64,000 nucleotides of DNA, from the NCBI GenBank assembly GCA_964501355.1, contig CAZCSM010000002.1:5884-69883 (forward strand), given 5' to 3'. The notes beneath the pieces are model-generated. The model had not been told where the DNA came from. It did not search any database and saw nothing but the letters and a program-made list of their open reading frames with translations. Shown here one piece after another: positions 3,173 to 57,145 of this stretch. The position numbers were made by a program, and so were the translations under genes. The DNA is from an uncultured Candidatus Saccharibacteria bacterium. GTDB taxonomy: Bacteria; Patescibacteriota; Dojkabacteria; CAZCSM01. Positions within the stretch are counted from its first letter, which is position 1; each line of letters starts with the position of its first letter.

Positions 3173-3307
3173 AACTCGTTAATGAAAAATATTGTACGGA
3201 TTATATAGAATCACTAAATACATTGCAATATCGGAGTTTTAACATCCATTTGCTTATCATCTATAATTTATTGTATATTGAATTAGAATATTCTATGTTG
3301 CGAAACA

Positions 3308-4576: not shown

Positions 4577-4592
4577 ACTGGGGAATTACACT

Positions 4593-5879: not shown

Positions 5880-8100
5880 GATCTTCTTTTTAGGAATAAT
5901 ATTAGCGTTTAACCTCGTCGTTATTTTTACCTTGCTTTTTGCTGAAACACAAAGGTTTAAGGAATCTCGTAAGTGGTTTGTTCTGCTAAATATATTTGTA
6001 GTTTTCTGGGTGTTATCCATTTTTATAACCGATATGTTTTACGATCTCACGATAGTAAGTCTGTGGGCGTCTAGAACTTCTTTTCTCTTCTCAATATTTA
6101 TAGCTTTTTTTCTTTATCGATTTGTTAAGAGTTATCAGAAAACGATTCTGCCTATCTGGGATTTTTGTGGAATATTATTTGAAATATTCAGTATAGTTTT
6201 TGGTGTTGCTTCACTGACGAAGTATAACATTTGGGGAGTTGTTGTGCTTGGTGAAAATAGTTTGAAGTCGGAAGTCGGATTTCTTTATCAATTTATTTCC
6301 TTATTTATTTCTATATATTTTGTTTTTTCAATTGCACTTTTCTTCAAGATTTACAAGGAAGAACGAAATCTTTCTCTCAAGACACAAATAGGCAATATCT
6401 TAATAGGGAGTACCTTGTCAATCTTCTCTTCCTTGGTAACAAATATTTTAATGCCGATGTTAGGTTTTCCTGAAATTCGATTTCTAGGTCCATTAGCATT
6501 AGGATTTTTTCTGTTCTTTACCTACTTCTCAATGCTTCGGGAACGATTCCTTGGGACGAAACAGATGCTCTACAACACCATTTATACATTTCTCTTCGCA
6601 CTGGTCCCATACGCAACCTTCCACATCATAGTATTCTTACAAAATATGATTTGGGGAAGTGTTTTTGAAACAGGTGCTTTGATAACAGGATTCTTTTATT
6701 CGTTAATTTTTTTATATGTTTTTAAGGCTGCGGGCAAATGGCTCAGTGTATTTGTAAAAGGATATGTTTTGAATTATCAATACGATCCTCTAGAGCAGCG
6801 AGATCGGTTTTTGGAAAAAACCAGAAACATTCTTGATATAAATGAATTGATTTCGGTTTTGAAAGAATTTGTAGATAATGTTGTTCGTCCGGTCAAAAGC
6901 TGGGTTGTTTTGAAGCCTCAATATCAAATAACGAATGAAGATTTAAAAAGTTCTGATTTCGGCTTTGGTAAAATCAATGGTTTGATAAAGGAATCTGAAT
7001 TGAAATTGCCATTGATTACTGATGAATTATTTGTAAAACACATTGAAGGAAAACACGAGTCTGAAGCTGATCCTAAATTTCAGCTTTGGAAGTTCTTGGA
7101 CATCAATAATATCCGAGCTGTATTATCTGTGAAAGATAAATCCCGTATTTATGGATATCTTGTGCTTGGTGAATTAAAGAGCGGTTCTGCGTATAGTGTT
7201 GAAATCGTAGAGCTCTTGGAGTTCTTGATTGACAATACGGCAATGGCAATTAACCGTGCACTTTTGTATCAAAAGGTAAAAAACTTTAATAAAATTCTCG
7301 TGGATGAAATCGAATCCGCTACAACACATCTTGCGGAAGCGAATGCTGAGCTTCGTAAGGTTGATGAAGCAAAGGACGATTTAATCTCAATTGCATCTCA
7401 TGAACTTCGAACACCTGCAACAATTGTAAAAGGTAAACTTCATTTGCTTAAAGGACGCGTTGCAAAATTAAAGGTTTGTGAGGGCTATGATCCCAAGATT
7501 GATAATGATATTGATGTTTGTCTATCTGCAATAGAAAGAGAGATTGAACAGGTAAACACTCTTCTTGAAGCTTCAAGGATTGGTAAGGACACGATGGTTT
7601 TGGACAAACAACTTTTTGATTTATATGATGTAGTTGAACAGGCAGTTGAAGATTTTGAAGGCATTGCAGCAGAGCAGGGACTTGAATTAACGATTGAGAA
7701 AACTGTGAAAGATTTACCTTTTGTGAATATTGATGTTCGACGTATCCGGGAAGTAATTGATAATCTAATCACCAATGCCATTAAGTATACAGAAGAAGGT
7801 TCAATAAAAGTTCGCGTATTTCAAAAAAATGCGAGAGAAATTAGTGTTAGCTTCACTGACACAGGAATCGGTGTTCCTAAAGAAAAGTTAGATCGACTAT
7901 TTACGAAGTTTTATCGTGTGAGGAACGATGAGGAAAATCGTTCTAAATTAGTAAAGCCGGGAGGAACTGGTCTTGGTCTCTTTGTTGCAAAGAACATTGT
8001 TGAAAAACATGGCGGAAGTATTTCCGTAAAGAGCGAAGAGGGGAAGGGATCCGTGTTTACTTTCTGTCTTCCTGTAAGCAGGAAGGATAATGTTGGGTAA
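5851..8100 (+). CDS. membrane sensor histidine kinase (multi-TM N-terminal sensor, HisKA, HATPase_c)
   Basis: ~8 TM helices in first 300 aa; H-box SIASHELRTP; G-boxes GGTGLGLFVAKNIVEKHGGSISVKS; overlaps upstream gene by 29 nt. Confidence 0.8.
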   Translation: MRILLEMVFEIFFLGIILAFNLVVIFTLLFAETQRFKESRKWFVLLNIFVVFWVLSIFITDMFYDLTIVSLWASRTSFLFSIFIAFFLYRFVKSYQKTILPIWDFCGILFEIFSIVFGVASLTKYNIWGVVVLGENSLKSEVGFLYQFISLFISIYFVFSIALFFKIYKEERNLSLKTQIGNILIGSTLSIFSSLVTNILMPMLGFPEIRFLGPLALGFFLFFTYFSMLRERFLGTKQMLYNTIYTFLFALVPYATFHIIVFLQNMIWGSVFETGALITGFFYSLIFLYVFKAAGKWLSVFVKGYVLNYQYDPLEQRDRFLEKTRNILDINELISVLKEFVDNVVRPVKSWVVLKPQYQITNEDLKSSDFGFGKINGLIKESELKLPLITDELFVKHIEGKHESEADPKFQLWKFLDINNIRAVLSVKDKSRIYGYLVLGELKSGSAYSVEIVELLEFLIDNTAMAINRALLYQKVKNFNKILVDEIESATTHLAEANAELRKVDEAKDDLISIASHELRTPATIVKGKLHLLKGRVAKLKVCEGYDPKIDNDIDVCLSAIEREIEQVNTLLEASRIGKDTMVLDKQLFDLYDVVEQAVEDFEGIAAEQGLELTIEKTVKDLPFVNIDVRRIREVIDNLITNAIKYTEEGSIKVRVFQKNAREISVSFTDTGIGVPKEKLDRLFTKFYRVRNDEENRSKLVKPGGTGLGLFVAKNIVEKHGGSISVKSEEGKGSVFTFCLPVSRKDNVG

Positions 8101-8136
8101 AATTGTGCAATAATAGTGTAAGATGGTTTTTGATAG

Positions 8137-8508
8137 ATGGTTAGTAACAAATCTCTAAAATTTGAAGATTTGGAAGTTTGGAAACTTTCTCAAACGTTAT
8201 TCCTAGAGCTGTCGGATATCTTTTATTTGAAATCTTTCCACAATTACTCTTTCCAAGATCAAATTATGAGAGCAGCAATTTCTATTAGTAATAATATTGC
8301 CGAAGGTTATGGACGTGGTGGGAAAAAGGAGCTTATCCGATTCTTGTTTATAGCCAAAGGTTCATGCGAGGAAGTTAAGAATATGATATATTTGGCGTTT
8401 TCTTTAAAATATATCTCGGAAGAACAGAAATTGGAATTTTTGCAGAAAACGACACAATTGAGCGTAAAGCTTAATAATTTTGTCAATTATTTAAAGAAAA
8501 AGGTCTGA
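8137..8508 (+). CDS. four-helix-bundle protein (TIGR02436 / 23S rRNA intervening-sequence protein family), copy 1 of 3
   Basis: 123 aa; motifs LEVWKLSQ..., ISISNNIAEGYGRGGKKELIRFLFIAKGSCEEVKNMIYLA shared with paralogs at 39080..39463 and 45574..45936. Confidence 0.75.
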   Translation: MVSNKSLKFEDLEVWKLSQTLFLELSDIFYLKSFHNYSFQDQIMRAAISISNNIAEGYGRGGKKELIRFLFIAKGSCEEVKNMIYLAFSLKYISEEQKLEFLQKTTQLSVKLNNFVNYLKKKV

Positions 8509-8580
8509 TATATTTTTCAACAGTCTTCTCTCAACATTACACAATGTTACACTATATTAAACCATTTTACACAACTTATT

Positions 8581-18694: not shown

Positions 18695-18736
18695 AAAGTA
18701 AAAAGGAAAAAGCAGATAAGCAGGAAAACAGGGATG

Positions 18737-18780
18737 CAGTAATACAGTAATACTGTAATACTGTAATACTGTAATACTGA
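18737..18780. repeat. tandem 8-nt microsatellite (taatactg x ~5)
   Basis: cagtaatacagtaatactgtaatactgtaatactgtaatactga read directly. Confidence 0.8.
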
Positions 18781-21169: not shown

Positions 21170-21390
21170 GTAAGTAAATTACAAATTACAAATAACAAAT
21201 AAATCTCAAATCACAAATTCAAAATACCAAACAATACACACTACTGTTATTAACAAGATTATTTAGATTCGTTCTTGATACTTCTACAACCTCAGTACAA
21301 GTTTTTGAATTTTGGTAATTTTTAGTGAGCTCATCAAACTATTGTAATTTGTTTGGAAATTGAAATTTGGAATTTGATGCTTAACCACAA
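21170..21390. repeat. AT-rich modular inverted repeat pair upstream of GT2 gene (modules caaat/ccaaacaat ... atttgtttggaaattgaaatttggaatttgatgctt), no ORF between the arms
   Basis: right arm 21345-21390 matches arms at 42055-42100 and 45960-46000; left arm is a degenerate reverse copy. Confidence 0.5.
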
Positions 21391-21504: not shown

Positions 21505-22434
21505 TTGGACTTATCAATAATCATATTAAATTGGAATAATAAGGGGGTCATTTTTGACTGCCTTGGTTCTGTTTTTCGGGAAATTGAAAATCTCGATGCG
21601 GAAGTTATTGTTGTGGATAATGGTTCGACTGACGGAAGTTTAGAATTAATAAAAAAGAATTATCAAAAAGTTGTTTTAATTGAGAATAAAGAAAACTTTC
21701 TTTTCGCTAAAGGTAATAACCAAGGCGTTGGAAAAGCAAAGGGCAAGTGGATAATGACACTTGGTTCAGATACGATTATTCAGAAAGATGCGATTAAATT
21801 GCTTTTAGACAAAGCAAAAAGCCTGTGTCACCCTGAGCCTGTCGAAGGGTCTAGCGATAGCGTTCCTTTGTGCAAAACAATTCTTGCTCCACAACTTATT
21901 TCCAAATCCGGTTCTGTTTTACTTTCTTGTCGTAAAATTCCAACTTTTTGGAATATGGCGAAATATATGGTTTATTCTTTTTTCGTTCGTCATTTTGACA
22001 CAAAGAATGTTTTTTGGGGTGAATATCGTATGGTTGATTGGAATCATGATACAGAAAGATTCGTAGAACAACCCGAAGCTACTTGTTGGTTAGGCCAGAA
22101 ATCTTTTTTCGAATCAATCGGGGGTTTGTTTGACGAGGAATTTCCTCTTTACTTTAATGATGTAGAAACGGCGATTCGAGTAAAGAAAGCAGGTGGTAAA
22201 TTTCTTTTTTGTCCGGAAGCAAAAGTGGTTCATTTAGGTGGCCAGAGTACGAAGAATTGGAGTGAGAATAGATTGTGGTTGTTTAGAGAAGGATTATTGA
22301 GATTATATACTAAACATTATATTAAAATATGGTATGATTGGTTTGGATATTTTTTAATAAAATATGCAACGTGGGCTTGGGTTCAAGTTAAGAATATTAC
22401 AAAGTCGCAAAATACGACTTATGAAATCAAATAG
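21505..22434 (+). CDS. GT2-family glycosyltransferase (TTG start) carrying a probable in-frame repeat-derived insertion
   Basis: LSIIILNWNNKGV..VVDNGSTDGS GT2 N-terminus; segment SLCHPEPVEGSSDSVPLCKT encoded by hairpin-forming tgtcaccctgagcctgtcgaagggtc. Confidence 0.7.
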   Translation: MDLSIIILNWNNKGVIFDCLGSVFREIENLDAEVIVVDNGSTDGSLELIKKNYQKVVLIENKENFLFAKGNNQGVGKAKGKWIMTLGSDTIIQKDAIKLLLDKAKSLCHPEPVEGSSDSVPLCKTILAPQLISKSGSVLLSCRKIPTFWNMAKYMVYSFFVRHFDTKNVFWGEYRMVDWNHDTERFVEQPEATCWLGQKSFFESIGGLFDEEFPLYFNDVETAIRVKKAGGKFLFCPEAKVVHLGGQSTKNWSENRLWLFREGLLRLYTKHYIKIWYDWFGYFLIKYATWAWVQVKNITKSQNTTYEIK

Positions 22435-33401: not shown

Positions 33402-35741
33402 ATGAAAATAGGATTTCTTTGTGAACGAATGCTTCTTGGTTTCGGTGTTGATCTTGTAATTCACAATCAAGCAGAGTTACTGGGTCAGATGGGTCATGAC
33501 GTTACAGTTTACACTTTGCGAACGGATGAAACTTTTAATAATAAATATTATCGAATCATCAAACTCAATTCCGGATTGCACCTCAATCCTCTCAAAACAG
33601 AGCTTGGAGTTGTAAAAAATACCGCTAGATTTCTTAACAATCAAGATGTCGATGTTTGGATATCTGAAACGTACCCATTCCATATATTGACATGGTTTTT
33701 GAAGAAACCCGTCTTCATAATAGAGTATGGCACAAGTTCAAGTGAAGGAATGAAGTTTAAGCAAAAGATAAATTTTTTCTATCAGAAATATGTTGATAGA
33801 TTATTATTCTTCCCTTTTTCAAAAAAGATAATAACAATTTCACAATATTTGAAAGATGCTCAGGTTCCTTTCTATTTACGACATAAGGCTATTCCTCAGC
33901 ATTTAGGAGTAGATCATTATATTAATGATTTCAAGGAAAGGAAAGGCAACTCATCTGCATTGAAAAAAGATTTAAAGTTGAACAAGGATGATTTCGTTTT
34001 GCTTTATGTAGGCAGATTGAGACATGAGGCTCAGCCGTATAAAGGTGTTGCTGATTTGATTGAAATATATCAGCAGGTTAAAAAGAAAAATTCAAAAGTA
34101 AAGCTGATAATGGCAGGTTATGGAGATGAAGAGGATAAAAAGAATTTGGAGAAAAAGGGAATAATTGCGTTACCTTGCGTTCCCAAAGAGGATCTAGAAG
34201 AATTATACGATTTGTGTGATTTATGTGTTTCTGCAACTAAGTGGGAGGGATTTAATCTTCCTATGTTTGAAGCACAGACATTCGGTAAAGTTCCGGTGAT
34301 TTATAATATCGGGCCTCATCCGGAACTGATGAATGATGGAGAACATGCTTTTCTTGTTAATGATCAGGATGAATTTATAGAAAAGGTTCTTTTGCTATCA
34401 AAGGATGAAAATTTGAAGAAGTCTATGGAGAAAAAGGCAATTGAACATTCTTCCAATTTTACATGGAAGAAAAATGTGGAGAAATTTGAAAAACTATTGA
34501 GGAAAGAGGTAAAGATAAAAAAGGAATATAAAAAAGATTGGGTTGATCTGATAACTCTTAACTATGATGGAAAATCAATAACGGAAGACTTGTTTAATTC
34601 TCTGAAGAAGAACAAATACAAAAATGTTAATTATGTAATGGTTGATAATGGATCTCATGATGGTTCCGCCGATTACATAGAAAAGAAATTCCATAATGTA
34701 AAAGTAATTCGTTCAAATAAGAACCTATTTTTTCCAAGAGGAAATAATCTTGCTATAAAACAAACGAACTCAGAATTTATAATGTTGGTTAACAATGACA
34801 TTATTGTCGAGCCGGATGCAATATCAAAAATGGTGAATAGAATGAAAAGTGATCCAATGATTGTAGCGGTTGCAAGTAAGATGTTGTCAATGAAAAATAA
34901 AAGAGTGATAGACTCTATTGGAACTGTGATGATGCCCGATGGTTCACCTTTTAATCGCGGAATTGGGCAGATTGATTTGGGACAATATGATAAAAGCGAA
35001 GATGTATTTGGTGCTTGTTTTGGCAGTGTTTTGCTGAGAAGGTCTTCGTATGAAAATGTAGTTGGTCCGATGGACAATGATTATTTCGGATATTTTGAAG
35101 ATGTAGATTGGTGTTTCCGTGCTAATATGTTGGGATATAAGATTGTCACTGAACCGGAAGCTATTGTTTATCACGCTCACAGTGCAACTTCCGCAAAGAG
35201 GAATTATGATTGGAAATTTTTCTTAATTCAGAGAAATTTTATCTGGACTATTCTCAAAAATTTTCAAAGAAATAAGGCTCTTCGAGGTGTAGTAAGAAGG
35301 TTGCTTGCATTATCAAGGGAGTTTGTTTTCTCCAAATCGCTTAGTAGGAAATGGGCAAGCTTGAAAGTTATTATGGCAACTATAATTTGTTCTCCGAAGT
35401 TTCTTGTAAAGAGATTAGATTTGCAAAGGAAAAGAATGGTCTCGGATGCTGAAATCTTCCGATTTTCTATTAACGAGTTTTCCTTCTTTGAACCAGTTAA
35501 ATATGAACCTATTTATTCTCTTGATAATTTAGAGAAGACTTTTGAAAGACTTGCTAATTTGAACAAAAAAGATATAAAGATTTATAAAGAAATCAGAAAT
35601 TTGAATCTGACAAAATCTGCTTCCGATGGACAGTGGGATAAAAAAGCAATTAAACTTTTGAAATCTTTGGAAAGTAGAATTGGTCGAGAAGACACAAAAA
35701 GATTTTTGGAATTTATTGTCGAGAAGAAGTCTTGGATATAA
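33402..35741 (+). CDS. two-domain glycosyltransferase: N-terminal GT4 (GT-B) fused to C-terminal GT2 (GT-A)
   Basis: EGFNLPMFEAQTFGKVPVIYN (GT4) in first half; ITLNYDGK..VMVDNGSHDGS..LVNNDIIVEPD (GT2 DxD) in second half; 779 aa. Confidence 0.7.
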   Translation: MKIGFLCERMLLGFGVDLVIHNQAELLGQMGHDVTVYTLRTDETFNNKYYRIIKLNSGLHLNPLKTELGVVKNTARFLNNQDVDVWISETYPFHILTWFLKKPVFIIEYGTSSSEGMKFKQKINFFYQKYVDRLLFFPFSKKIITISQYLKDAQVPFYLRHKAIPQHLGVDHYINDFKERKGNSSALKKDLKLNKDDFVLLYVGRLRHEAQPYKGVADLIEIYQQVKKKNSKVKLIMAGYGDEEDKKNLEKKGIIALPCVPKEDLEELYDLCDLCVSATKWEGFNLPMFEAQTFGKVPVIYNIGPHPELMNDGEHAFLVNDQDEFIEKVLLLSKDENLKKSMEKKAIEHSSNFTWKKNVEKFEKLLRKEVKIKKEYKKDWVDLITLNYDGKSITEDLFNSLKKNKYKNVNYVMVDNGSHDGSADYIEKKFHNVKVIRSNKNLFFPRGNNLAIKQTNSEFIMLVNNDIIVEPDAISKMVNRMKSDPMIVAVASKMLSMKNKRVIDSIGTVMMPDGSPFNRGIGQIDLGQYDKSEDVFGACFGSVLLRRSSYENVVGPMDNDYFGYFEDVDWCFRANMLGYKIVTEPEAIVYHAHSATSAKRNYDWKFFLIQRNFIWTILKNFQRNKALRGVVRRLLALSREFVFSKSLSRKWASLKVIMATIICSPKFLVKRLDLQRKRMVSDAEIFRFSINEFSFFEPVKYEPIYSLDNLEKTFERLANLNKKDIKIYKEIRNLNLTKSASDGQWDKKAIKLLKSLESRIGREDTKRFLEFIVEKKSWI

Positions 35742-36936
35742 GCTTCTTAACCTTGTTTTTTAGAGCGTTAACATTAAAGACTTTGTTCTCTAGAATTTCT
35801 ATTGTCTTTCTTTGATTATTAATTTCTCCGTCTAAGTGGGCAACGGCATTTTGGAAATTTTCAATATGCTGATTCTTTTCTTCTAGTTCTTTTTGAAAGT
35901 TTTCAATATGCTGATTTTTTTCTTTCAGTTCTTTTTGGAAGTTTTCAATATGCTGATTTTTTTCCTTCAGTTCTTTTTGGAAGTTTTCAATATGCTGATT
36001 TTTTTCACTCAGTTCTTTTTGGAAGTTTTCAATATGTTCATTCTTTTCATCTATTGTTTTTACAAGATCTGGTATTTGTGAGGTTTCTTTCTGTAGATTC
36101 TCTATATGTTTCTGTTTGGCTTCTGCTTCTTTCAAAAGCTTTTGAACTAGTTCTTCTTTCTCTTCGATTATCCTTGTTTGGTTTTCTACTAATTGGTGAA
36201 CCTCAAGCATTGGCTTTTTGTTTTGCGGAAGATCGCTAATTCCCTTTGTTTTTTCTGCAGAGATTTTGAATATGTATTGATATGCAATCGATTCCTTTTT
36301 AGTAATTAGATTAATGAACGCGGATGTTGTTTTTAATCCAAGCTTTTCAAGTTCTTCATTTAAGTACTTTGTTGGAAAATCGAAAGTTGTGTAATGTAGT
36401 TCATTAACAAACAGGTCTGCTTTTTTGATGAGATTACTGAATTTCTTTAAAGTGAAATATTGAAGATGTGTGTCATCAAGAATTCCTCTTTCTTCCGATT
36501 CGAAATCGCCTCTCAATAGTTCCAACCTGATTGATACGTGTGCAATGTTTGGAATAGACACAATTATGAATCCCTTCGGTTTTATGTATGATTTCAGTCT
36601 CTTCAGTAACTCCAGAGGATTCTTTAAATGTTCAAGCAAATCTGCGACTATAATATAGTCGAAACTATTTTTTTCGAACTCTTTTTCCCATATACTATCT
36701 TCAACATTCGCGATGACAACCTTCTTACACACCTTCTTTGCGATTTCCGCATCTTCCTTTGACAACTCTATTCCAGAGACTTGGCAGTTTTTTTGTTGAA
36801 TTAAATATTCCGCAAGGTAGCCGCTACTGCACCCTATATCAAGTATTTCGGCACCATCATCAATCATATTAACAATTTTGGTAAGCGAAACATTTTCATT
36901 TGAAACATCAACTTTTTGGTGGGAATATTTGCTCAT
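35713..36936 (-). CDS. SAM-dependent methyltransferase fused to a tandem-repeat coiled-coil tail; WbdD-like chain terminator/ruler candidate
   Basis: N-terminal ILDIGCSSGYLAEYL..IIVADLLEHL MT motifs; C-terminal ~150 aa of 15-aa repeats EKNQHIENFQKELKE x4-5; last gene of the wzm-wzt operon. Confidence 0.65.
   Translation of the reverse strand: MSKYSHQKVDVSNENVSLTKIVNMIDDGAEILDIGCSSGYLAEYLIQQKNCQVSGIELSKEDAEIAKKVCKKVVIANVEDSIWEKEFEKNSFDYIIVADLLEHLKNPLELLKRLKSYIKPKGFIIVSIPNIAHVSIRLELLRGDFESEERGILDDTHLQYFTLKKFSNLIKKADLFVNELHYTTFDFPTKYLNEELEKLGLKTTSAFINLITKKESIAYQYIFKISAEKTKGISDLPQNKKPMLEVHQLVENQTRIIEEKEELVQKLLKEAEAKQKHIENLQKETSQIPDLVKTIDEKNEHIENFQKELSEKNQHIENFQKELKEKNQHIENFQKELKEKNQHIENFQKELEEKNQHIENFQNAVAHLDGEINNQRKTIEILENKVFNVNALKNKVKKLISKTSSRQ
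35845..36048. repeat. tandem 45-nt repeat (about 4.5 copies) encoding the coiled-coil repeats of the WbdD-like gene
   Basis: plus-strand unit gttttcaatatgctgatttttttcyttcagttctttttggaa repeated head-to-tail. Confidence 0.85.
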
Positions 36937-37823: not shown

Positions 37824-39014
37824 TTACCTCCATGTATGTGGTAATTGCAAAAGTCCGTTCTTTTTAGTGGTTGCCTTGAAATTAACAAACTCGTTAAATT
37901 CAGAGCTGTCATAAACCTCGTAGATGAGATTATTTTTTGGATCGCCTTTGAATATGCTTGCCTTATAATAAAAACTTCCTTTGTTGAAATAATTGGGATT
38001 AAAACTCAGCTTTATCTTATTCACACCTCTATTTATCTTTGGCGAGAATCCATCATAAAATGAATTATTTCCACAAATCCAAGCGTTTGTATTTTTATCA
38101 AATATAGCCAAACCCACGAATAAATCATTTTCTGGCTTTTCAACTTCTAAATTTATCTCGAAAGTTATGTTTTCCTCACTTGTGAAACTTCTTTTTTCTA
38201 GACGCTGTTTGGCATAAGTTTTTATCTCCTTGATGAAATGTAAATCTTTAACTGTAGAAGAATCATTCGAAAGTATAGGGTTGCCTTCATTTTGATAATG
38301 TGATACCACCTCTTCCGTCCCATTATCAATCCTCACCTTTCCTCCATCAATCCAAATAACCCTATCACAAAACTCTTTCACACTATCCATCCCATGGCTC
38401 ACAAACACCACAGTCTTTCCTTCTTTTTTAAAATTTCTAAACACATCAAAACATTTTTCCTGAAAACCAGCATCGCCGACTGCCAGTACTTCATCAACTA
38501 AATAAATATCAGCATCTGATTGAATGGCGATGGAGAAGGCGAGTCGTACTTGCATGCCTGAAGAATAATTCTTTACCGGCATATCGATGAAATCTCTCAC
38601 TTCTGCAAAATCTACAATTTCATCAAATTTCTTCTCTAAAAACTTCTTCGTCATTCCGAGAATTATCCCGTTAAGAAAAATGTTTTCTCTTCCCGATAAT
38701 TCAGGGTTGAATCCAACACCAAGCTCCAAGAATGGAGTCATTTGACCATTGATTTTTACACTTCCTTTATCCGGCTCGTAAATGCCTGCGAGTGTTTTTA
38801 AAAGTGTAGATTTTCCGCTACCGTTTCTTCCGATAATTCCCAAAAACTCTCCCTTTTTCACTTCGAAAGAAACATCGTTTAAAGCATTAAATTCTCGGTA
38901 CTTTGTTTTGTGAAAAGGGTTGAGAACGTAGTGTTTAATCTGCGTCTTCTGTTCAAAAGGGATTCGGAAGGTTTGGGATAAGTTATTTACTTTTATTGCA
39001 ATAGCATCGTTCAT
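37824..39014 (-). CDS. wzt: polysaccharide ABC exporter ATP-binding protein with ~150-aa C-terminal extra domain (CBM-like)
   Basis: Walker A GRNGSGKST, signature YSSGMQVRLAFS, Walker B IYLVDEVLAVGD; extension beyond the NBD to 396 aa. Confidence 0.75.
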   Translation of the reverse strand: MNDAIAIKVNNLSQTFRIPFEQKTQIKHYVLNPFHKTKYREFNALNDVSFEVKKGEFLGIIGRNGSGKSTLLKTLAGIYEPDKGSVKINGQMTPFLELGVGFNPELSGRENIFLNGIILGMTKKFLEKKFDEIVDFAEVRDFIDMPVKNYSSGMQVRLAFSIAIQSDADIYLVDEVLAVGDAGFQEKCFDVFRNFKKEGKTVVFVSHGMDSVKEFCDRVIWIDGGKVRIDNGTEEVVSHYQNEGNPILSNDSSTVKDLHFIKEIKTYAKQRLEKRSFTSEENITFEINLEVEKPENDLFVGLAIFDKNTNAWICGNNSFYDGFSPKINRGVNKIKLSFNPNYFNKGSFYYKASIFKGDPKNNLIYEVYDSSEFNEFVNFKATTKKNGLLQLPHTWR

Positions 39015-39079
39015 ATTTAAATTGGTTGGAGATTGTTAAAACATTGATAAAACATAGTTCAAACGTTGTTGAAACGTAG

Positions 39080-39463
39080 TTACAAATTTTTAGATAAATA
39101 TTTAATCAAGTTACTTATCTTCACTGATATGGTAACACAATTCTTTCGAAGTTCTTCTGATTTTGCAGAACCTATAAAGTTTTGATTCTCTGCAATATGC
39201 AACATGCTTCGCACTTCTCCGCAAGATCCTTTGGAAATGTATAAGAATCTTATAAGTTCTCTGTTGCTTTGTCTTTCGTAACCTTCAGCAATGTTATTGC
39301 TTATTGATAAAGTTGCTCTTAATATCTGATCTTTGAAATAGTAATCCCTAAATTTCTTATCTCCAAATATCTGAGATATGTCTATGAATAATTGTATTCC
39401 TAACTGCCAAATTTCTAAATCTTCAAAATTTGTTTTACTATGTTTGATCGATGTTTTATCCAT
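39080..39463 (-). CDS. four-helix-bundle protein (TIGR02436-like), copy 2 of 3, inserted between wzm and wzt
   Basis: LEIWQLGIQLF..ATLSISNNIAEGYERQSNRELIRFLYISKGSCGEVRSMLHIA; flanked by inverted repeats aaaacatagttcaaac / gtttgaaactatgtttt. Confidence 0.75.
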   Translation of the reverse strand: MDKTSIKHSKTNFEDLEIWQLGIQLFIDISQIFGDKKFRDYYFKDQILRATLSISNNIAEGYERQSNRELIRFLYISKGSCGEVRSMLHIAENQNFIGSAKSEELRKNCVTISVKISNLIKYLSKNL

Positions 39464-39543
39464 GTTTGAAACTATGTTTTATCTTTACAATGAAAGCGCT
39501 TCGCTAGATCCTTCGTTGCACTCTGGATGACACTGTTTGTTAT

Positions 39544-40338
39544 TTACAACCGTTCTGCAATCCCTTTGATATTTTTCTTAAAAAAATACAGACTGATGAA
39601 AAATGCCGGTAATATTATTGCCAGCATTATTAGGTTCGTTTTTACAAATTCTATCTTCCCATAAATCAGTGCCGATCTTGCGGAAAGAATGATTCTAGTT
39701 AATGGATTTAATGCAACAACGGTGCTTATTGTTCCGGTCAACATTTCAATCGGGTATATGATTGGTGTAAGGTAGAAAAACACTTGCAATACTAGTTCCC
39801 AAATCGGGGCAATATCTCTGAATCGGACATGTAAAATACTTATAATAAATCCGAAAGTTAATATTAGTATGTATTGGATGAAAATTAAAAAGATGAAATA
39901 TAAAAATGATTGGAATGTGACATCTGTTTTAAATACAATTGCGAATATTCCGAAAATACAGAGGTTTATTCCATAATTTATTATGGCAATTATTGTTGAA
40001 GATACCACCGCAATTTCCTTTGGAAAATTTACCTTCAGAATAATTCCGGCTTTTCCTAGAATTGAATGCATACCGTTAATTGTTCCTTCTGAGAAGAATT
40101 GAAATGTAATTGTTCCGAGTAATAGGTATAAAGGGTAATTTGAGATTGAGTCATTTCCACCGAAGAATTTAGAAAAAACAGTATACAGAATCAGAAACAT
40201 CATAAACGGACGGATAAGCACCCATGCAAATCCGAGAAATGAATTATTATATCTGATTTTGAAGTCTGTCTTTACAAGCTCGACCAGAAGGTCTTTAAGA
40301 TTTTCGTTGGATCGATTCATATGTATGTTCAAAGTCAT
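39544..40338 (-). CDS. wzm: polysaccharide ABC exporter permease (ABC-2 type)
   Basis: LVKTDFKIRYNNSFLGFAWVLIRPFMMFLILYTVFS matches the Wzm/TagG N-terminal signature; 6 TM helices; 264 aa. Confidence 0.75.
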   Translation of the reverse strand: MTLNIHMNRSNENLKDLLVELVKTDFKIRYNNSFLGFAWVLIRPFMMFLILYTVFSKFFGGNDSISNYPLYLLLGTITFQFFSEGTINGMHSILGKAGIILKVNFPKEIAVVSSTIIAIINYGINLCIFGIFAIVFKTDVTFQSFLYFIFLIFIQYILILTFGFIISILHVRFRDIAPIWELVLQVFFYLTPIIYPIEMLTGTISTVVALNPLTRIILSARSALIYGKIEFVKTNLIMLAIILPAFFISLYFFKKNIKGIAERL

Positions 40339-40339
40339 T

Positions 40340-40900
40340 TAAATGGAAGTCCCTTCTCCTTTTAGGAGAAGGTCAGGATGAGGTGATTGTGTTGTATTTA
40401 AACCTCACCCTATCCCTCTCCTATTAGGAGAGGGGACTAGAATACAATTTTGAAATAGCACGTCTTTATGATTGTATAACAAAAGGACTTCGTTTCAAAG
40501 TAGATTCAAAGTAGAGGCAGAATGAGGATGACTGGAACAAGAAATGGATCCCGTGTCGAAGCACGGGATGACGAAGTGAAATGACACCAGCTGTCATCGC
40601 GGGCGAAGACCCGCGATCTCGGAGTACATTGATTACTGACTTTTGTGAAAAACAGTAGTTTTATATTTAATCCGAGATCCCGCATCACACCCCGAGATTC
40701 GGGGCTGTGCGGGATGACATAATATCTTCTCCCCTGAAAAGGGGAGTGGTTGCGAAGCAACCGAGGGGTGTTACCGTACACCTTCCGCCACTAATAATCG
40801 GTTTATTATTCTTCGAGCGCAACGAAGTGGAGTCGAGAAGTTCTCGACTTCGCTCGAACAATAAACCATGTCTGATTCTCCACCAGTAGTGAGCTTGTCG
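40340..40900. repeat. palindrome-dense intergenic region: at least nine distinct short hairpin units of several families
   Basis: ccttctcct-ttt-aggagaagg; ccctctcct-att-aggagaggg; gatcccgtgtcg-aag-cacgggatgacg; tgaca-ccagc-tgtca; cgcggg-cgaaga-cccgcg; atcccgca..ccccga-gat-tcgggg..tgcgggat; ctcccct-gaaa-aggggag; ggttgc-gaa-gcaacc; ttattcttcgagcg..tcgagaa-g-ttctcga..cgctcgaacaataa. Confidence 0.8.
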
Positions 40901-40994
40901 AATTATGCGGAGAAGGACACTGTGCTATGCACTAGTTGCAAACGGTTGTTTATAGTACAATATTTCTATCTGAATTTTGGCTTAAAGATTTTTA

Positions 40995-41924: not shown

Positions 41925-41959
41925 TTATAATTTCAAAGTGATACTAGTTTTTTAAGAAA

Positions 41960-42145
41960 TTCCAAATTCTAAATTACAAATATCAAATAAATTACAATAT
42001 ATAAAATCTCAAAATAATTATTTGTAGGTTTTGTGATTTGGCGAATTAATGTTTGAGATTTGTTTGGAAATTAAGATTTTGGATTTGGTGCTTTAAGATA
42101 ATGATTCTTATACATGGATTCCGTGTCGAGCACGGAATGACGATT
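41960..42145. repeat. AT-rich modular inverted-repeat pair with ~35-nt spacer (no cargo) followed by one gatcccgtgtcg-type palindromic unit, immediately upstream of GT4 gene
   Basis: aaattccaaattctaaattacaaatatcaaata ... gagatttgtttggaaattaagattttggatttggtgcttt; then ggattccgtgtcgagcacggaatgacg at 42116-42142. Confidence 0.55.
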
Positions 42146-42164
42146 TACTTTACACATAAAATTG

Positions 42165-43394
42165 ATGCGTATTGGTATTGATGTTCGGATGATTTTTGAA
42201 TTTCCAACCGGTATTGGAAATTATCGTAAGAGTTTGATGGAAGCTCTCTTTGAGATTGATCATGAGAATGATTACATTTTAGTTGGGAACAGCAATCAGC
42301 GGTCAGCTTTCAGCGCACAGCTTGAGCAAGTGAATATTTCATTTGGAGAAATAAAATCTAAAGCTAATCATCCTCAGCAACATCTTCTCCTCAGAAGAGA
42401 ATTGCAAAAGCTTAATCTTGATGTCTTTTACACAACACCGTGGGGTGCGACTCTTGGTCTGCCATGCAAATACGTCCTGGAAATTCCTGATCTTATTTAT
42501 CACCATTATCCTCAGTTTGGCTCCTGGAAATCAAAACTTTATGAATTGTTTTTAGAGAAACCTATTGCACGAAATGCCGAGCATGTTGTAACAATTTCTG
42601 ATTTTGTTAAGACAGATATTCATAATTATCTCGGTGTCGATCTGGATGATATTTCGAATATGAAGGGGGATGTTTCTTCTGATTATCGTGTAATTGAAGA
42701 TGAGAAATTTATTAATAATGTTTTAGAGAAATATGGATTGGTGGACCCTAAATTTCGTCGGGGTAATGAAGGGGTGGATCCCGTGTCGGAGCACGGGATG
42801 ACGCCGTTCTTTGTATATCTTGGGAATCAGCGTCCGCATAAAAATTTGGTAAGTTTGTTAAAGGCGTTTGAGATTTTTAAAGACGGGGTTATTTCGTCAC
42901 CTCACCCTAGCCCTCTCCTAAGAGGAGAGGGGACAGATGTGAAGCTTGTCATTATTGGCGGTGTTGACGCAAGCGGGAGGGATGAGGATTCTTTGCGAAT
43001 TCAAAAACAACTTGGGGAAATGAAATATAAAGATGACGTTATGCTTTTGGGAAAGGTGTTTGATAATAATGAAGTTGCTGCAATTTTCAACCGCGCAATT
43101 GCTATGGTTCACCCATCAATGCATGAAGGGTTTGGTATGACTCCTCTTGAAGCAATGAGATGCGGTTGTCCAATTATTGCCTCAAATGTTACTGCTATGC
43201 CCGAGGTTGTAGGTGAAGCGGGTATTTTAATTGATCCTCTCGATCAAAATGCCATCGCAACGGCAATGTATGAACTTTTTACAAACCAGAAATTAAATAA
43301 AGATTTAAAGCAGAAATCTTTAACTCAATCTAAACTGTTTTCTTGGGAAAAAACTGCTAGAATATTGTTAGACGTATTTAGTAAATTGAAATGA
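42165..43394 (+). CDS. GT4-family glycosyltransferase carrying two in-frame palindromic-repeat insertions
   Basis: [23 protein letters not shown]4 motif; inserted peptides [11 protein letters not shown] (42776-42805) and [15 protein letters not shown] (42897-42935) are encoded by hairpins identical to intergenic repeat units. Confidence 0.7.
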
Positions 43395-45473: not shown

Positions 45474-45530
45474 TTTCTCTTAAATGCGTTAATTATATAA
45501 TAACTCTTTAAGAAATAAGGAGGCCTTGAT

Positions 45531-45570
45531 ATCAAATTCCAAATTCTAAATAACAATTTCCAAACAAATC
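45531..45570. repeat. left AT-rich modular arm flanking the four-helix-bundle gene (contains caatttccaaacaaat)
   Basis: reverse complement of module atttgtttggaaattg found in right arm at 45965-45980. Confidence 0.55.
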
Positions 45571-45573
45571 ACA

Positions 45574-45936
45574 ATGACCAAAATCTCAAATAACAAACAA
45601 TATGATTTAGAGGAAAGAACTTTAGAATATGGTAAGAGAATTGTTAGATTCTGCAAATCTTTATCAAAAGATAAAATAAATTCTAGACTTTGTGATCAAT
45701 GTTTGCGCTCTGGAACATCTATAGGAGCGAATTATAGAGAAGCAAATGAAACAGAAACAAAAAAGGACTTTTTGTTTAGGATGAGGATATCTCGAAAGGA
45801 AGCAAAAGAGACGATTTATTGGTTACAATTAATAACAGAAGCAAATCTAGAACTAGAAAATAAGATTAAACCTTTGTTAGAAGAAACTTCTGAACTTCTA
45901 AAAATAATTTCGAGTATAATCGAGAAGTGTAAATAG
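45574..45936 (+). CDS. four-helix-bundle protein (TIGR02436-like), copy 3 of 3, between inverted AT-rich arms
   Basis: 120 aa; GTSIGANYREANETETKKDFLFRMRISRKEAKETIYWLQLI parallels paralogs. Confidence 0.7.
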   Translation: MTKISNNKQYDLEERTLEYGKRIVRFCKSLSKDKINSRLCDQCLRSGTSIGANYREANETETKKDFLFRMRISRKEAKETIYWLQLITEANLELENKIKPLLEETSELLKIISSIIEKCK

Positions 45937-46000
45937 TTTAGAATTTTGAATTTGTTATTTGATATTTGTTTGGAAATTGAGATTTTGGATTTGGTGCTTT
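45937..46000. repeat. right AT-rich modular arm (tttagaattttgaatttgttatttgatatttgtttggaaattgagattttggatttggtgcttt)
   Basis: near-identical to 42055-42100 and 21345-21390. Confidence 0.6.
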
Positions 46001-46046
46001 TTATTAAGTTTTGTATTTTGTGAATTGTTAATAAGTTTAATGCTAT

Positions 46047-48503: not shown

Positions 48504-48668
48504 AAGGTTTTTATGAGATAATTTCTAATTACTAATATCTAATTTCTGAACAAATTCAAAATATCAAATCCCAATCCTTGTTTAGATTAATTAGGTTAAT
48601 TAGGTCAATTAGAAATTTGGATCGAACTGTATGACGTTATATTATTAAAATAAACATAAATTACTTAC

Positions 48669-49292
48669 ATGAAGAATTCTGTAAAAAGATTAATGGATAT
48701 TGTTATTTCTCTCTGTGCACTGATTTTAGGGTTTCCTATTTATCTTATTACTGCAATTGCCATTAAGCTGGACTCAAAAGGTCCTGTTTTTTACTCTCAA
48801 GATCGAGTCGGGAGAAATGAGAAGAATTTCAAATTCTGGAAATTTCGATCAATGGTTGTTAATGCTGATGAAATCCTTTTCAAGAATAAGGAGATGTATG
48901 AAAAGATGAGATCCGGTTCACATAAGATTGCTGATGATCCACGAATTACAAAGGTAGGAAAGTTTATTAGAAGAACGTCTATCGATGAGTTGCCTCAATT
49001 TTGGAATATATTGAAAGGTGATATGAGCTTTGTCGGTCCTCGTGCATATAGACCGGATGAGATAAAAATTTATCGGGATGAAAAAAGAGAGGGCTATGAA
49101 TTGTTTCCAAAAGTATTTTCTGTAAAACCAGGACTTACTGGTATCTGGCAAGTGTCTGGGAGATCAACTCTTACATTCCTTCAACGTGTGCAAATGGACG
49201 CTGACTATGCAGAGAATTGGACTGTTCCCGGTGATGTAAAGATTATTATTCAGACACCAATTGCGGTTATTAAAGGTGAAGGTGCGTATTAA
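48669..49292 (+). CDS. initiating polyprenyl-phosphate sugar-phosphate transferase, small PglC/WbaP-C-terminal type
   Basis: single N-terminal TM, GPVFYSQDRVGRNEKNFKFWKFRSM, DELPQFWNILKGDMSFVGPRA motifs of PF02397 sugar transferases. Confidence 0.8.
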   Translation: MKNSVKRLMDIVISLCALILGFPIYLITAIAIKLDSKGPVFYSQDRVGRNEKNFKFWKFRSMVVNADEILFKNKEMYEKMRSGSHKIADDPRITKVGKFIRRTSIDELPQFWNILKGDMSFVGPRAYRPDEIKIYRDEKREGYELFPKVFSVKPGLTGIWQVSGRSTLTFLQRVQMDADYAENWTVPGDVKIIIQTPIAVIKGEGAY

Positions 49293-49511
49293 TAAGTAAT
49301 AGTTAAAAAGTAATAAGTAATAAGAGCGGCATTACAGTTACATGTTTGATTGTCAAAAGTCGGAATGTCTATAACGCCGAAAGGAAGATGCTTTGTTATT
49401 CCGGATATGTTGCATGACACTGTGTATAAAACTTCAGAAAATTACACTGTTAGCTGTTAGCTGAACTTTTTGTTATACTGAATCTTGATTTCGAATTGCC
49501 CTTACATTGTA

Positions 49512-51479
49512 ATGACTAAAATTGATATTAAAGTTGATACGAAAAGACATAGGAATGCACATAGGTTTGAAAAGAATGTCTTATCGAAGTTTCCTAAAAC
49601 TGTTAATGAAAAAAGGAAAAAGTTAATTAAAACTCTTTCAATTGTTTTTTCAGTATTCCTCATGTTATTAGCAGTAATAGGCGTTTGGGGCTATTACAAG
49701 CTTTATCTTCCTGCAATGAGACTTAAAGATCAGGCATATTCGATGCTTGATGAGGTTAACATTGCAAAGAATTACTTTGAGAGTCAAGATCTCGTAAGTT
49801 TGCAAAATCAAATTCCAATTGTTGAAACAGAGCTCGAAGAATTTATTTCTCAGTATGAATATTTTTCCTTTGCTGAAAAGCTGCCGATTGCAAAAGGCTA
49901 TTATGCAAATGGAACCAATCTTCTTGAAGCTGCCAGATTATCAATTCCTCTTGGCCAAAGTCTATTAACGGCTGCAACTCCTATCGCAGATGTCTTCGGT
50001 TATAAAACGACAGATGGTGAACAGGAAGAGGTCGCAGGGCAAGAGAAAATAGAAACGATTATTCGGAACCTCCCCGATATTTCCTCTGTTTTGGAAGAAT
50101 CTGACTCACAGGTGGATCAGATTCTAGACGCATTATCCAGAATTGATCCCAAGTATATCCCCGAGAAAGTCGGAGATATGGAAATTGGGAGCAAATTCGA
50201 GGAGATAGATTTTGTCTTAAAAGAGAGTAAAAATATTTTTGCAGATGTACAAGAAGTTCTTCAGCTTGTCCCAAGTTTAGCTGGCGCAGATGGGAAAAAG
50301 ACCTATCTCATTCTTTTTCAGAATGATATGGAAATACGTCCAACAGGTGGATTTATTACAGCTTTTGGTTATGCGGAAATTGAGAATGGCGTTTTGGGAG
50401 ATATTGTAAGTGAGGATATTTATAACTTGGATCGAAAAATTTATAGTTGGGAAAAGGCCCCAAAAGAAATTCAAGAATATCTAGGTGTGTATGAGTGGCA
50501 CATTCGAGATGTAAACATTCATGCGGATTTGGTTTCTGCTTCGCAGAAATTTGAAGAGATGTATGCAAATCAATATCGACCTAGAGATTTCGATGGGATT
50601 GTCTATTTGGATACGGGGTTTGTAGAATCATTGATTTCCGTTGTCGGGCCAATTGAGCTGAAAAAATATAATGAAACAATTACCGCAGAAAACGTTGTTC
50701 ATGAACTGGAAATATACTCCGAGAAGATATTAACCGGTGGCGCCGATCGGAAGCAGTTCATGGAAGATTTGATGGGAGAACTTATTTCTAGAGTAATTGA
50801 GGCTCGAAGTGAAGAGTGGGGCGGTTTAATTAGCGGCGTCTGGTCTTCTCTTGAAACAAAAAGTTTGCAGTTTTACTTTCATAATGAAGATGTACAGTCT
50901 CTTGCTTCAAAGTATGGATTTACCGGAGAAGTTAATGAAGATGTTGATGGCGATTTCCTCTATGTTGTTGAATCAAATATGGGAGGATTGAAATCCAATA
51001 TTTATGTCACAAGTGCAATGACACAAAATATTCAGATTGATGATGATGGTTCGGTTACAAAAACCGTAAAAATTAGATGGGAAAATCCCGAACCAAAAGA
51101 TTTTTGGCTTAATGGTCCATATCGAAATTGGGTGAGAGTCTATGTTCCTAAAGGCTCGGAGTTAATAGGGGACGGTGTTTGGACAAGGACTCCTAATGAG
51201 GATTGGAATGAAAAGGATTATGGGAAAACAATTTTTGAATCTTTTGTCACGGTTCCTGTTGCAACCGGATGTTCATATTATGATAAAGAAAAAAATTGTG
51301 AACCGGGTGTTGCAGAGATAGTGTTTACGTATAGACTACCGTTCACGGTTGATAAAAAGGAGCCGTATTCTCTATTTATTCAAAAACAGCCTGGGCGAGA
51401 CGATGAGCCACAAACGATCATTATTAATGATGAAACGTTTGAGGAAGTTTTGAATAGGGATTTGGAATTAATGTTGTAG
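49512..51479 (+). CDS. large membrane-anchored extracytoplasmic protein, hypothetical (adjacent to initiating transferase)
   Basis: N-terminal TM LSIVFSVFLMLLAVIGVWGYY then ~600-aa soluble domain; start placed at ATG 49512. Confidence 0.55.
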   Translation: MTKIDIKVDTKRHRNAHRFEKNVLSKFPKTVNEKRKKLIKTLSIVFSVFLMLLAVIGVWGYYKLYLPAMRLKDQAYSMLDEVNIAKNYFESQDLVSLQNQIPIVETELEEFISQYEYFSFAEKLPIAKGYYANGTNLLEAARLSIPLGQSLLTAATPIADVFGYKTTDGEQEEVAGQEKIETIIRNLPDISSVLEESDSQVDQILDALSRIDPKYIPEKVGDMEIGSKFEEIDFVLKESKNIFADVQEVLQLVPSLAGADGKKTYLILFQNDMEIRPTGGFITAFGYAEIENGVLGDIVSEDIYNLDRKIYSWEKAPKEIQEYLGVYEWHIRDVNIHADLVSASQKFEEMYANQYRPRDFDGIVYLDTGFVESLISVVGPIELKKYNETITAENVVHELEIYSEKILTGGADRKQFMEDLMGELISRVIEARSEEWGGLISGVWSSLETKSLQFYFHNEDVQSLASKYGFTGEVNEDVDGDFLYVVESNMGGLKSNIYVTSAMTQNIQIDDDGSVTKTVKIRWENPEPKDFWLNGPYRNWVRVYVPKGSELIGDGVWTRTPNEDWNEKDYGKTIFESFVTVPVATGCSYYDKEKNCEPGVAEIVFTYRLPFTVDKKEPYSLFIQKQPGRDDEPQTIIINDETFEEVLNRDLELML

Positions 51480-51697
51480 CAATGTGGTATCAATGTTGGA
51501 ACAATGTAGTACTTGTTAAGTCAAACGTCTATAAAGTCAAAAGTTAAACGTCTAAATTCAGATATTCTTCGAGCGAAGTCGAGAAGTTGTTGTCTTTCAT
51601 TCTGCCTTTGAAATTGTCGTTATTCGATAAACTCCTTGAAAAATTGGATGAACAGCACTAGTCTTTGAGCTTTTAGTTTTACCTTTTTACTTTTCTC

Positions 51698-56498: not shown

Positions 56499-57029
56499 AT
56501 GCAAAATCATAAACAATTTCGAGGTGTAGATCTCAAAAGATTTGTTCGAAAAAATAAAACACAAAAAGATTTCGAGCTCGTTCTAATCCTACTCAATCTC
56601 TCCTATGCGACAAATGTCGCTGCAGTTTTCCGAACTGCAGATGCGTTCTCTGTGGATAAAATGTATTTAATTGGTTGTACTACAACACCTCCTTTCGGAA
56701 AAGCCATGGCATCCGTTTCTAGAGGAAAAGAAGGTTCTGTCTCTTGGGAATATTCTGAAACTTTTGAGAAGATTGCTGCGAAACTACACAAGGATAATTT
56801 CAAAATTTATGGGCTCGAGCTTGCAACCGATGCAAAGATTCTTTCGGATCTTAATTCGTCTGCGGGTTCAAAAATAGCTCTTGTCGTTGGTAATGAGGAA
56901 CACGGAATTCCGGACAAGCATTTGGCACTAATGGATGATGTCTTCTATATTCCGATGGGAGGGAAGGGGAAATCGCTTAATGTTTCTACAACTGCAGCGA
57001 TTGGGCTTTATCAAATTAGTCAAAATTAA
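56499..57029 (+). CDS. SpoU/TrmH-family RNA 2'-O-methyltransferase
   Basis: LILLNLSYATNVAAVFRTADAF and C-terminal LVVGNEEHGIPDKHLALMDDVFYIPMGGKGKSLNVSTTAAIGLY SPOUT knot motifs. Confidence 0.65.
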   Translation: MQNHKQFRGVDLKRFVRKNKTQKDFELVLILLNLSYATNVAAVFRTADAFSVDKMYLIGCTTTPPFGKAMASVSRGKEGSVSWEYSETFEKIAAKLHKDNFKIYGLELATDAKILSDLNSSAGSKIALVVGNEEHGIPDKHLALMDDVFYIPMGGKGKSLNVSTTAAIGLYQISQN

Positions 57030-57145
57030 AAAGGCAAAAGGAAAAAAGAAATAGTTTTCCGTAAAAGTATTTAAAGCATTTGGTTAGGAACGATAGATTC
57101 TCTATAAGAAAACTATTCACTACTTACTATTAACTATTCACTTTC

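Follow-up and report, generated by a model that had tools for sequence, protein, structure and literature searches.

The stretch of DNA analysed here (the window) comprises 64,000 nucleotides of a contig from an uncultured Candidatus Saccharibacteria bacterium (CAZCSM010000002.1, positions 5,884 to 69,883), and contains on its minus strand a pair of transporter genes, wzm and wzt, that is interrupted by a small gene with inverted repeats on both sides. The upstream gene wzm (39544..40338) encodes an ABC-2 permease (PF01061, E = 3e-16), and the downstream gene wzt (37824..39014) encodes an ABC ATPase (PF00005, E = 2e-22), in which Wzt_C is weak, with PF14524 scoring 28.4 bits, under its cut-off of 30.4. 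The open reading frame (ORF) between them, here called copy 2 (39080..39463, minus strand), encodes a predicted four-helix-bundle protein of 127 amino acids (aa). Its matches to PF05635 (E = 9e-29, 100.3 bits, cut-off 33.8) and TIGR02436 (101.4 bits, cut-off 24), together with the domains of its neighbours, bear out the original prediction, made from the sequence alone, of a 127-aa gene between wzm and wzt. The very large PF05635/TIGR02436 family (23S_rRNA_IVP in Pfam; also called 'S23 ribosomal protein') has been familiar from ORF-bearing intervening sequences (IVSs) of 23S rRNA since the early 1990s; outside diversity-generating retroelements (DGRs), we know of no function for it. Copy 2 is located not in a 23S rRNA helix but between wzm and wzt, and Rfam gave no matches across the whole window.

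Both ends of copy 2 are occupied by arrays of short tandem units. In gene orientation, the 5′ arm (39431..39483, minus strand) is built of tandem 11-nt units (…AAAACAT…), for which Tandem Repeats Finder (TRF) reported periods of 11 and 23, and this array covers the start codon and continues into codon 7. The 3′ arm (39032..39079, minus strand) consists of four tandem 11-mers (TRF period 11, 4.0 copies), which read ACGTTTCAACA ACGTTTGAACT ATGTTTTATCA ATGTTTTAACA on the gene strand and stop about 20 nt short of the wzt ATG. The two arms form an inverted repeat with a perfect 14-nt pair (39046-39059 / 39470-39483) and, in a second register, a 34-nt pair at 82% (39036-39069 / 39437-39470). That the arms can pair in several registers follows from their build, with about four 11-nt units in tandem on each side. 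The simple 17-nt terminal repeats originally described for this locus need revision. The quoted strings are indeed present, but their coordinates were about 9 nt off, the real positions being 39049-39064 (aaaacatagttcaaac) and 39464-39480 (gtttgaaactatgtttt), and the two are not exact reverse complements, as they differ by a one-base indel. Each arm is instead a 30–60-nt tandem array whose unit varies from copy to copy. Between the stop codon of wzm and the 5′ arm, the spacer (39484..39543, minus strand) contains a GC-rich, hairpin-type segment unrelated to the arms.

Two further copies are present in the window, both on the plus strand. The paralogs noted earlier at 8137..8508 and 45574..45936 proved to be real PF05635 genes, and both have flanking inverted repeats. 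Copy 1 (cassette 8087..8577) is placed between a histidine kinase and a GalE-like epimerase gene and comprises a 5′ arm (8087-8136), an ORF of 123 aa (8137..8508; PF05635 E = 4e-30, 104.5 bits; TIGR02436 96.9 bits, with the same cut-offs of 33.8 and 24) and a 3′ arm (8532-8577). Copy 3 (cassette 45525..46008) comprises a 5′ arm (45525-45597) that extends into the first 8 codons of the ORF, an ORF of 120 aa (45574..45936; PF05635 E = 8e-19, 68.3 bits; TIGR02436 88.1 bits, likewise against 33.8 and 24) and a 3′ arm (45937-46008), with inverted repeats of 61 nt at 74% and 22 nt at 91%. The arm sequences of copies 1, 2 and 3 differ from one another. A six-frame HMM search of the window detected no further or degraded family copy beyond these three. 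Their host genes are functionally unrelated to one another, the neighbours being a histidine kinase, an epimerase, wzm/wzt, a response regulator and a GT1 glycosyltransferase. No recombinase lies beside any of the three copies, and the sole ORF of each cassette is the helical bundle of 120–127 aa.

To express the repeats as a number, an inverted-repeat (IR) score was calculated as the best local alignment between the 5′ flank of a gene and the reverse complement of its 3′ flank, with 90 nt beyond and 40 nt within each end of the ORF. Copies of the family scored 45 (copy 3), 38 (copy 1) and 38 (copy 2) and occupied ranks 1–3 among the 57 genes of the window, followed by a gene scoring 26, with a median of 17.5 over the 57 genes. 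For each of the three copies, none of 1000 dinucleotide shuffles reached the observed score; in the case of copy 2, the shuffles had a mean of 17.2 and a maximum of 29, compared with 38 observed.

Arms also occur without an ORF. An arm pair at 41955..42105 has both arms homologous to those of copy 3: 42052-42094 is 95% identical over 43 nt to the copy-3 segment 45958-46000, and 41957-41979 matches the left arm of copy 3 at 96% identity. This pair (41955-42105) folds as a hairpin with z = −2.0. A second pair of the copy-3 type (21170..21385) has about 100 nt between its arms, shares 36 nt at 89% identity with both copy-3 arms and folds with z = −2.4. In another genome, a copy-3-type arm is found at the L015/L021 junction described below. 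Direct repeats that would mark a target-site duplication are absent beside the copy-3-type elements, with their ends set by alignment, and beside the top-scoring homolog loci introduced in the next paragraph.

A metagenome scan, with an alignment of three sequences as query, revealed how general this layout is. At least 459 of the 600 candidates listed were confirmed as relatives of the family. The 80 loci with homologs have 40–57% identity to copy 2 and a GC content of 27–63%, and 71 of them carry an intact ORF of 100–150 aa. IR scores were compared between 74 homolog loci with enough flank and 217 control ORFs from the same loci. The median was 27.5 for the homologs vs 16 for the controls, and 64% of the homologs lay above the 95th percentile of the controls (Mann–Whitney p = 1e-23); small control ORFs scored like all controls. 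Flanking repeats, whose absence from other copies was originally named as evidence against a cassette, are thus found at both paralogs and at most of the 74 homologs. At the homolog loci, the arms have a median length of 30 nt (range 15–67) and a median complementarity of 87%; the inner end of the 5′ arm lies a median of 12 nt ahead of the ATG, and the 3′ arm starts a median of 10 nt past the stop. They are nearly always arrays of 7–11-nt tandem units, such as TAAAGTT, AAAGATT, TAATGAC, GGAGCAG, AGGACTC, TGAGGCT and AAGTCGT. Periodicity in the flanks was 0.63 vs 0.50 in the controls (p = 2e-25), and the strong arrays mostly have a period of 7.

Arms and ORF evolve as a single unit. The best partner of a 5′ arm was its own 3′ arm in 26 of 75 loci (chance about 1), and this partner was among the top three in 38 of 75; the median pairing score was 27 for own pairs vs 15 for cross-locus pairs. 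Among non-syntenic pairs, arm similarity grows with protein similarity (rho 0.22; Mantel 0/300), and between non-syntenic copies, which lie in unrelated contexts, nucleotide homology reaches at most about 60 nt past the ORF. The pairing of arms with their own partners, the correlation between arms and protein, and this limit of homology therefore identify the ORF plus its arms as a unit that recurs across contexts. About 5 of the 80 metagenome copies are pseudogenes. In contig L037, a second PF05635 copy, a pseudogene with an in-frame stop (606-980), lies about 1.5 kb upstream of the intact one; interrupted PF05635 copies were also seen in L032, L049, L057 and L089. A scan of viral contigs with the copy-2 gene gave no matches. 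In a crude motif check, no conserved 23S motifs were detected in the 80 homolog loci, and Rfam applied to the 20 loci with the strongest repeats reported only one tRNA and no rRNA. For this family, an rRNA location thus looks like the exception rather than the rule.

The history of the cassette was followed at fixed sites, beginning with the wzm|wzt junction. In L001 (Logan), the flanks are identical to those of the window and the same cassette is present. In L018 (ENA), with wzt at 86%, the junction contains an ortholog of copy 2 with 86% aa identity; dN is 0.087 and dS 1.66 (saturated), corresponding to a dN/dS of about 0.05, and the 3′ arm is about 80% conserved. A 5′-arm array homologous to that of copy 2 is also kept after wzm in L021 and L020, where wzm is only 66–68% identical. 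Given the saturated dS of the L018 ortholog and the persisting arms, this lineage has inherited the wzm|wzt cassette vertically over a long time; it is not a recent insertion.

At the same time, the content of the junction varies. L016/L017 (Logan; wzm 84%, wzt 85%) contain another family member of 117 aa that is 32% identical and has its own heptamer arms; between L016 and the window, homology stops exactly at the end of wzm, and its limit on the other side lies about 20–30 nt inside wzt. In L021 and L015, from the same sample (wzm 68%), window-type arms are both present around remnants, namely a 15-codon remnant of an L016-type gene and a copy-3-type arm. These two contigs probably join as one locus, judging from a 28-nt contig overlap in that sample. 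L019/L020 (Logan, JGI; wzm 66%) have a 394-nt gap with no gene and a recognisable 5′-arm array. Comparison of such junctions for empty sites, as originally proposed, thus revealed another member, remnants or no gene in relatives, but no clean empty wzm|wzt site among the relatives compared, the L019/L020 gap holding an arm remnant and L014 having no wzm. A scan of a genome collection with Wzt returned only distant relatives, all of at most 48% identity, and therefore no close empty site. In L105, a Dojkabacteria-like contig with 50% identical wzm, a glycosyltransferase gene separates wzm from wzt (2501-5768); the pair can thus be split in this group even where no cassette is present. An ancestral operon gene that relatives always carry at this position and without repeats, the other case foreseen at the outset, does not describe a junction that varies while its arms persist.

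Two other sites show comparable changes. At the copy-1 site, L102 (epimerase 86% identical) carries an ortholog of 68% aa identity in which both arms are altered in concert, the window unit TTGTGTAA being replaced by TTGAGCCA, with an IR score that is still 30. In L104 (epimerase 61% identical), the kinase–epimerase gap is 135 nt and contains no cassette. At a syntenic site between an IscA-like gene and the next gene, a group of loci with flanks 67–77% identical has three ORF types of 39–53% mutual identity, and each ORF type has its own arm unit. On the evidence of these aligned sequences, the comparison shows that over longer times cassettes have been gained, exchanged, decayed and lost, leaving ORF-less arm pairs behind.

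The protein of copy 2 was modelled with AlphaFold2 (predicted local distance difference test score, pLDDT, 88), giving helices at residues 13-33, 41-63, 67-93 and 99-125. The top Foldseek matches of this model were 2GSC and 2RLD (template-modelling score, TM, 0.77–0.90; root-mean-square deviation 1.4–1.8 Å), each containing five chains, followed by Avd (4DWL); phmmer linked copy 2 to 2GSC with E = 1.5e-9. The protein is thus predicted to adopt a four-helix-bundle fold like that of 2GSC/2RLD. Solved members of the family, from Bacteroides thetaiotaomicron (BT_0352) and Xanthomonas campestris (XCC0516), are homopentamers. In the structural alignment with Avd, sequence identity is just about 10–14%. 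The cassette proteins are under purifying selection (dN/dS about 0.05–0.11), and no PADLOC defence model matched at E ≤ 0.01. Residues 1–11 of copy 2 (39461-39430, codons 1–11) are disordered (pLDDT < 50) and encoded by arm repeats, as are codons 1–8 of copy 3 (45574-45597), while in L102 (2584-2631) the arm repeats are translated as a C-terminal extension of 16 residues. Parts of the protein termini are therefore by-products of the arms.

In the minimum-energy RNA folds of all three window copies, the two arms form a closing stem (z = −1.95, −4.38 and −2.50, the value of −4.38 being that of copy 3), and in the predicted fold of copy 2 the AUG lies within the arm stem. Cassettes occupy short intergenic gaps (medians 58 and 69 nt) and mostly point the same way as the gene upstream, with co-orientation in 60 of 66 cases vs 81 of 117 control pairs. 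The cassette has no more promoter or terminator motifs than shuffled sequence, which suggests expression by read-through. Complementarity between the arms is clearly maintained, since they persist where dS is saturated and their changes are concerted.

Combined, these comparisons support regarding the gene and its inverted-repeat arms as a discrete cassette and not as part of the transporter operon, and since the layout is common to many unrelated microbes outside rRNA, it looks like a widespread, semi-mobile cassette. We lean towards reading copy 2 as one member of a widespread, IVS-type palindromic cassette that lives between operon genes. The originally suggested tiny selfish or mobile cassette fits this in being a discrete, recurring unit of ORF and arms with ORF-less derivatives of the arm pairs, but not in the recent insertion or target-site duplication that such an element might display. 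In the mechanism we propose, the gene would have no promoter of its own and would be transcribed by read-through from the upstream gene. Within the transcript, the arms could then anneal to each other as a long, imperfect stem enclosing the ORF; in the modelled fold of copy 2 this stem would also bury the AUG. By analogy with the IVS of Coxiella, which RNase III excises (PMC4990558), the stem may serve as an RNase III substrate, so that the host RNA could lose the insert or be insulated from it; this would explain why the insert is tolerated inside rRNA and operons. In DGRs, a long-range RNA duplex encloses the template, and all five protomers of the Avd pentamer bind an 11-bp RNA stem-loop with flipped-out bases between protomers (bioRxiv 10.1101/2023.10.23.563531). 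Similarly, since the arm unit is particular to the ORF type, the cassette protein, if pentameric, probably recognises its own arms.

Several results weigh against this reading. Among the 74 homologs, 36% stay below the control threshold. The wzm|wzt cassette is ancient and conserved, which suits a host-beneficial resident as well as a selfish element. Selection for a helix in the sense RNA should bias arm mismatches towards G:U, and no such bias was seen in 50 elements (G:U 47 vs A:C 48), so that complementarity may rest on the DNA level or on protein-binding constraints acting on each arm. Likewise, the positions of arm mismatches, considered as regularly spaced flipped-out bases, were not significantly periodic (p = 0.26). 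In Coxiella, excision of the IVS proceeds although S23p is not detectable (PMC4990558), and processing therefore does not in general need the protein. Finally, target-site duplications were not seen in the loci compared, nor were near-identical cassettes with an ORF at separate sites or a wzm|wzt junction that was cleanly empty, so the case for movement is built on comparative patterns only.

The main rival explanation is a mobile element acting at the level of DNA, in which the arms are multi-site terminal inverted repeats that the protein binds on DNA, recruiting a host or trans-acting recombinase; the ORF-less pairs would then be similar to miniature inverted-repeat transposable elements (MITEs), and pairing of the RNA would be incidental. 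We regard this as possible rather than probable. In its favour are the nearly equal numbers of G:U and A:C mismatches, the construction of the arms as inverted tandem arrays of one unit specific to the ORF type, the ORF-less pairs with 89–96% arm identity to copy 3, and the swapping of divergent family members at identical sites. However, target-site duplications and a common terminal consensus were not found, no identical ORF-bearing copies were seen, no recombinase adjoins any copy, the strong upstream co-orientation is not required of a DNA transposon, and the cassette has resided vertically for a long time under purifying selection. We also know of no member with the four-helix-bundle fold of this family that binds DNA specifically or catalyses strand transfer. 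A bolder proposal, which we hold to be doubtful, is that the TIGR02436/PF05635 genes with their arms form a distinct and very widespread class of mobile elements. An Avd-like pentamer would here grip its own arm repeats, as RNA or single-stranded DNA, and direct processing and copying or relocation, possibly through RNA as an intermediate, with a reverse transcriptase or the host's recombination acting in trans, with the 23S IVSs and the Avd of DGRs as specialised offshoots.

A resident, non-mobile operon gene would explain the L018 ortholog at the same junction with its saturated dS and dN/dS of about 0.05, the conservation of arm sequence between the window and L018, the arm array recognisable at 66–68% wzm identity, and the co-oriented, tight packing in operons. 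The symmetric arrays would in that case be cis-regulatory, acting as operators, autoregulatory RNA sites or processing sites that set the wzm/wzt stoichiometry, and relatives would differ through fast divergence and occasional loss. We find this unlikely, considering that the L016 protein is only 32% identical between wzm and wzt genes that are 83–84% identical, with homology breaking exactly at the gene ends, that one syntenic site holds three ORF types, that related units of ORF plus arms recur in many unrelated contexts, that ORF-less arm copies are scattered in the window, and that the three window copies have functionally unrelated host genes. It is far less probable that the genes are Avd accessory proteins of DGRs, with which they share fold and family and whose bAvd Pfam model is matched by the L016 gene. 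No reverse transcriptase (RT) or template/variable repeat lies beside the three copies, the window contains no RT-like YxDD ORF, and the Avd equivalog model NF033474 gave no hit to the window copies, L016 scoring 40.5 bits vs a cut-off of 80. DGR membership is rejected for this window, given the missing RT neighbour and the NF033474 result. The chance that the repeats are an artefact of low-complexity, AT-rich intergenic DNA is practically negligible. The genome is AT-rich and other intergenic regions carry short tandem arrays too, but none of 1000 dinucleotide shuffles reached the score of any copy, the three copies rank 1–3 of 57 genes, own arms outscore cross-locus arms (median 27 vs 15), and the enrichment (p = 1e-23) holds across loci of 27–63% GC. 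A chance origin is thus refuted by the shuffle, rank and control comparisons.

Further repeats were observed in the window. Intergenic tandem arrays of 7–11-nt units without an adjacent PF05635 gene are located at 18686-18779, 48519-48620, 49290-49324, 51463-51560 and 57028-57142, with the units AAAAAGT, GTAATACT (five copies), TAATTTC, TAATAAG (five copies), AATGTTGTAAC (four copies) and AACTATT; the array at 48519-48620 makes a local inverted pair. These arrays may be relics of lost cassettes or a general trait of the intergenic DNA of this genome. Short GC-rich hairpins, such as tcccttctcc…ggagaagg, atcccgtgtcgaagcacgggat and tcgcgggcgaagacccgcga, are clustered in this AT-rich genome at 40340-40990, and occur also at 39490-39535 and 13100-13260 and in relatives (L020 1790-2190; L021 3775-3800; L104 3395-3470). 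These hairpins seem to make up a miniature palindromic repeat family of their own. Two appear to be inserted in frame inside glycosyltransferase genes, at 42783-42802 (ORF 42162..43394) and about 21815-21870 (ORF 21505..22434), where otherwise ordinary glycosyltransferase sequences are broken by hairpin-encoded peptides, one of 14 residues and the other CHPEPVEGSSDS. The string GTGTCGGAGCACGGGATGAC in a glycosyltransferase gene has one mismatch to an intergenic copy at 40553, while shuffles predict 0 matches. In ORF 35713..36936 (minus strand) of the same polysaccharide operon, a 42-nt coding tandem repeat (35849-36061; 5.1 copies, 87% matches) encodes a repeated KNQHIENFQKEL coiled-coil at the C-terminus of a methyltransferase-domain protein.

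If the architecture is general, the idea that the ORF serves the element, attributed to Ralph & McClelland in PMC4990558, can be put to the test, with the repeats of its own arms as the predicted cognate ligand of each protein and the Avd–RNA complex as structural precedent. Annotators could then recognise inserts that split coupled gene pairs such as wzm–wzt, and ORF-less palindromes might otherwise pass for terminators or regulatory sites. Full-text searches returned papers on the 23S IVSs and on DGRs and Avd, but none that described PF05635 genes outside rRNA with flanking inverted tandem-repeat arms; subscription journals were mostly outside this search, and an earlier mention is possible.

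Among known systems, ORF-bearing IVSs in helix 25 or 45 of 23S rRNA occur in Leptospira, Coxiella burnetii, Xanthomonas and Brucella, with the S23p ORF in the loop of a stem that RNase III excises, and have long been regarded as selfish or horizontally moving. The present cassettes share with them the protein family (PF05635/TIGR02436), the size of about 430–530 nt, and inverted repeats that enclose the ORF and could form a long stem. Short tandem repeats just ahead of the ATG are a further likeness, as three or four GACAGAT heptamers directly precede the S23p start codon in the Coxiella IVS (PMC4990558). In contrast to the IVSs in helix 25 or 45, the cassettes lie between protein genes of operons and are under strong purifying selection, while the ORF in Coxiella is decaying and, it appears, not expressed. 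Excision by RNase III is known for Coxiella and would apply to the present cassettes by analogy.

Avd is a positively charged pentamer. It has a four-helix-bundle fold homologous to that predicted here (PDB 4DWL; DGR ribonucleoprotein 8UB7) and sets a precedent, in that this pentamer holds on to a structured RNA beside its own gene. Unlike Avd genes, the present copies have no RT, template or variable repeat nearby and do not reach the equivalog model. MITEs and transposons with terminal inverted repeats, such as Tn7 and Mu with their ends, resemble the cassettes in having inverted ends made of repeated units, dispersed ORF-less derivatives with homologous arms, and copies in unrelated contexts. 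The cassettes, however, have neither a transposase in or beside them nor a target-site duplication, their arms vary between copies of one genome, and the copies are old and under purifying selection. Integron cassettes with attC sites are likewise promoterless, co-oriented, tightly packed small ORFs, each with an imperfect palindrome of conserved structure and variable sequence. Here, the two arms of the palindrome stand on either side of the ORF, where integron cassettes have a single 3′ attC, integrase and array are lacking, and the protein family is always the same. While the 23S IVSs and the DGR/Avd system are already known, an IVS-type element outside rRNA appears to be new, and if its architecture is general, the intervening sequences of rRNA would be the visible tip of a far larger population of operon-dwelling cassettes.

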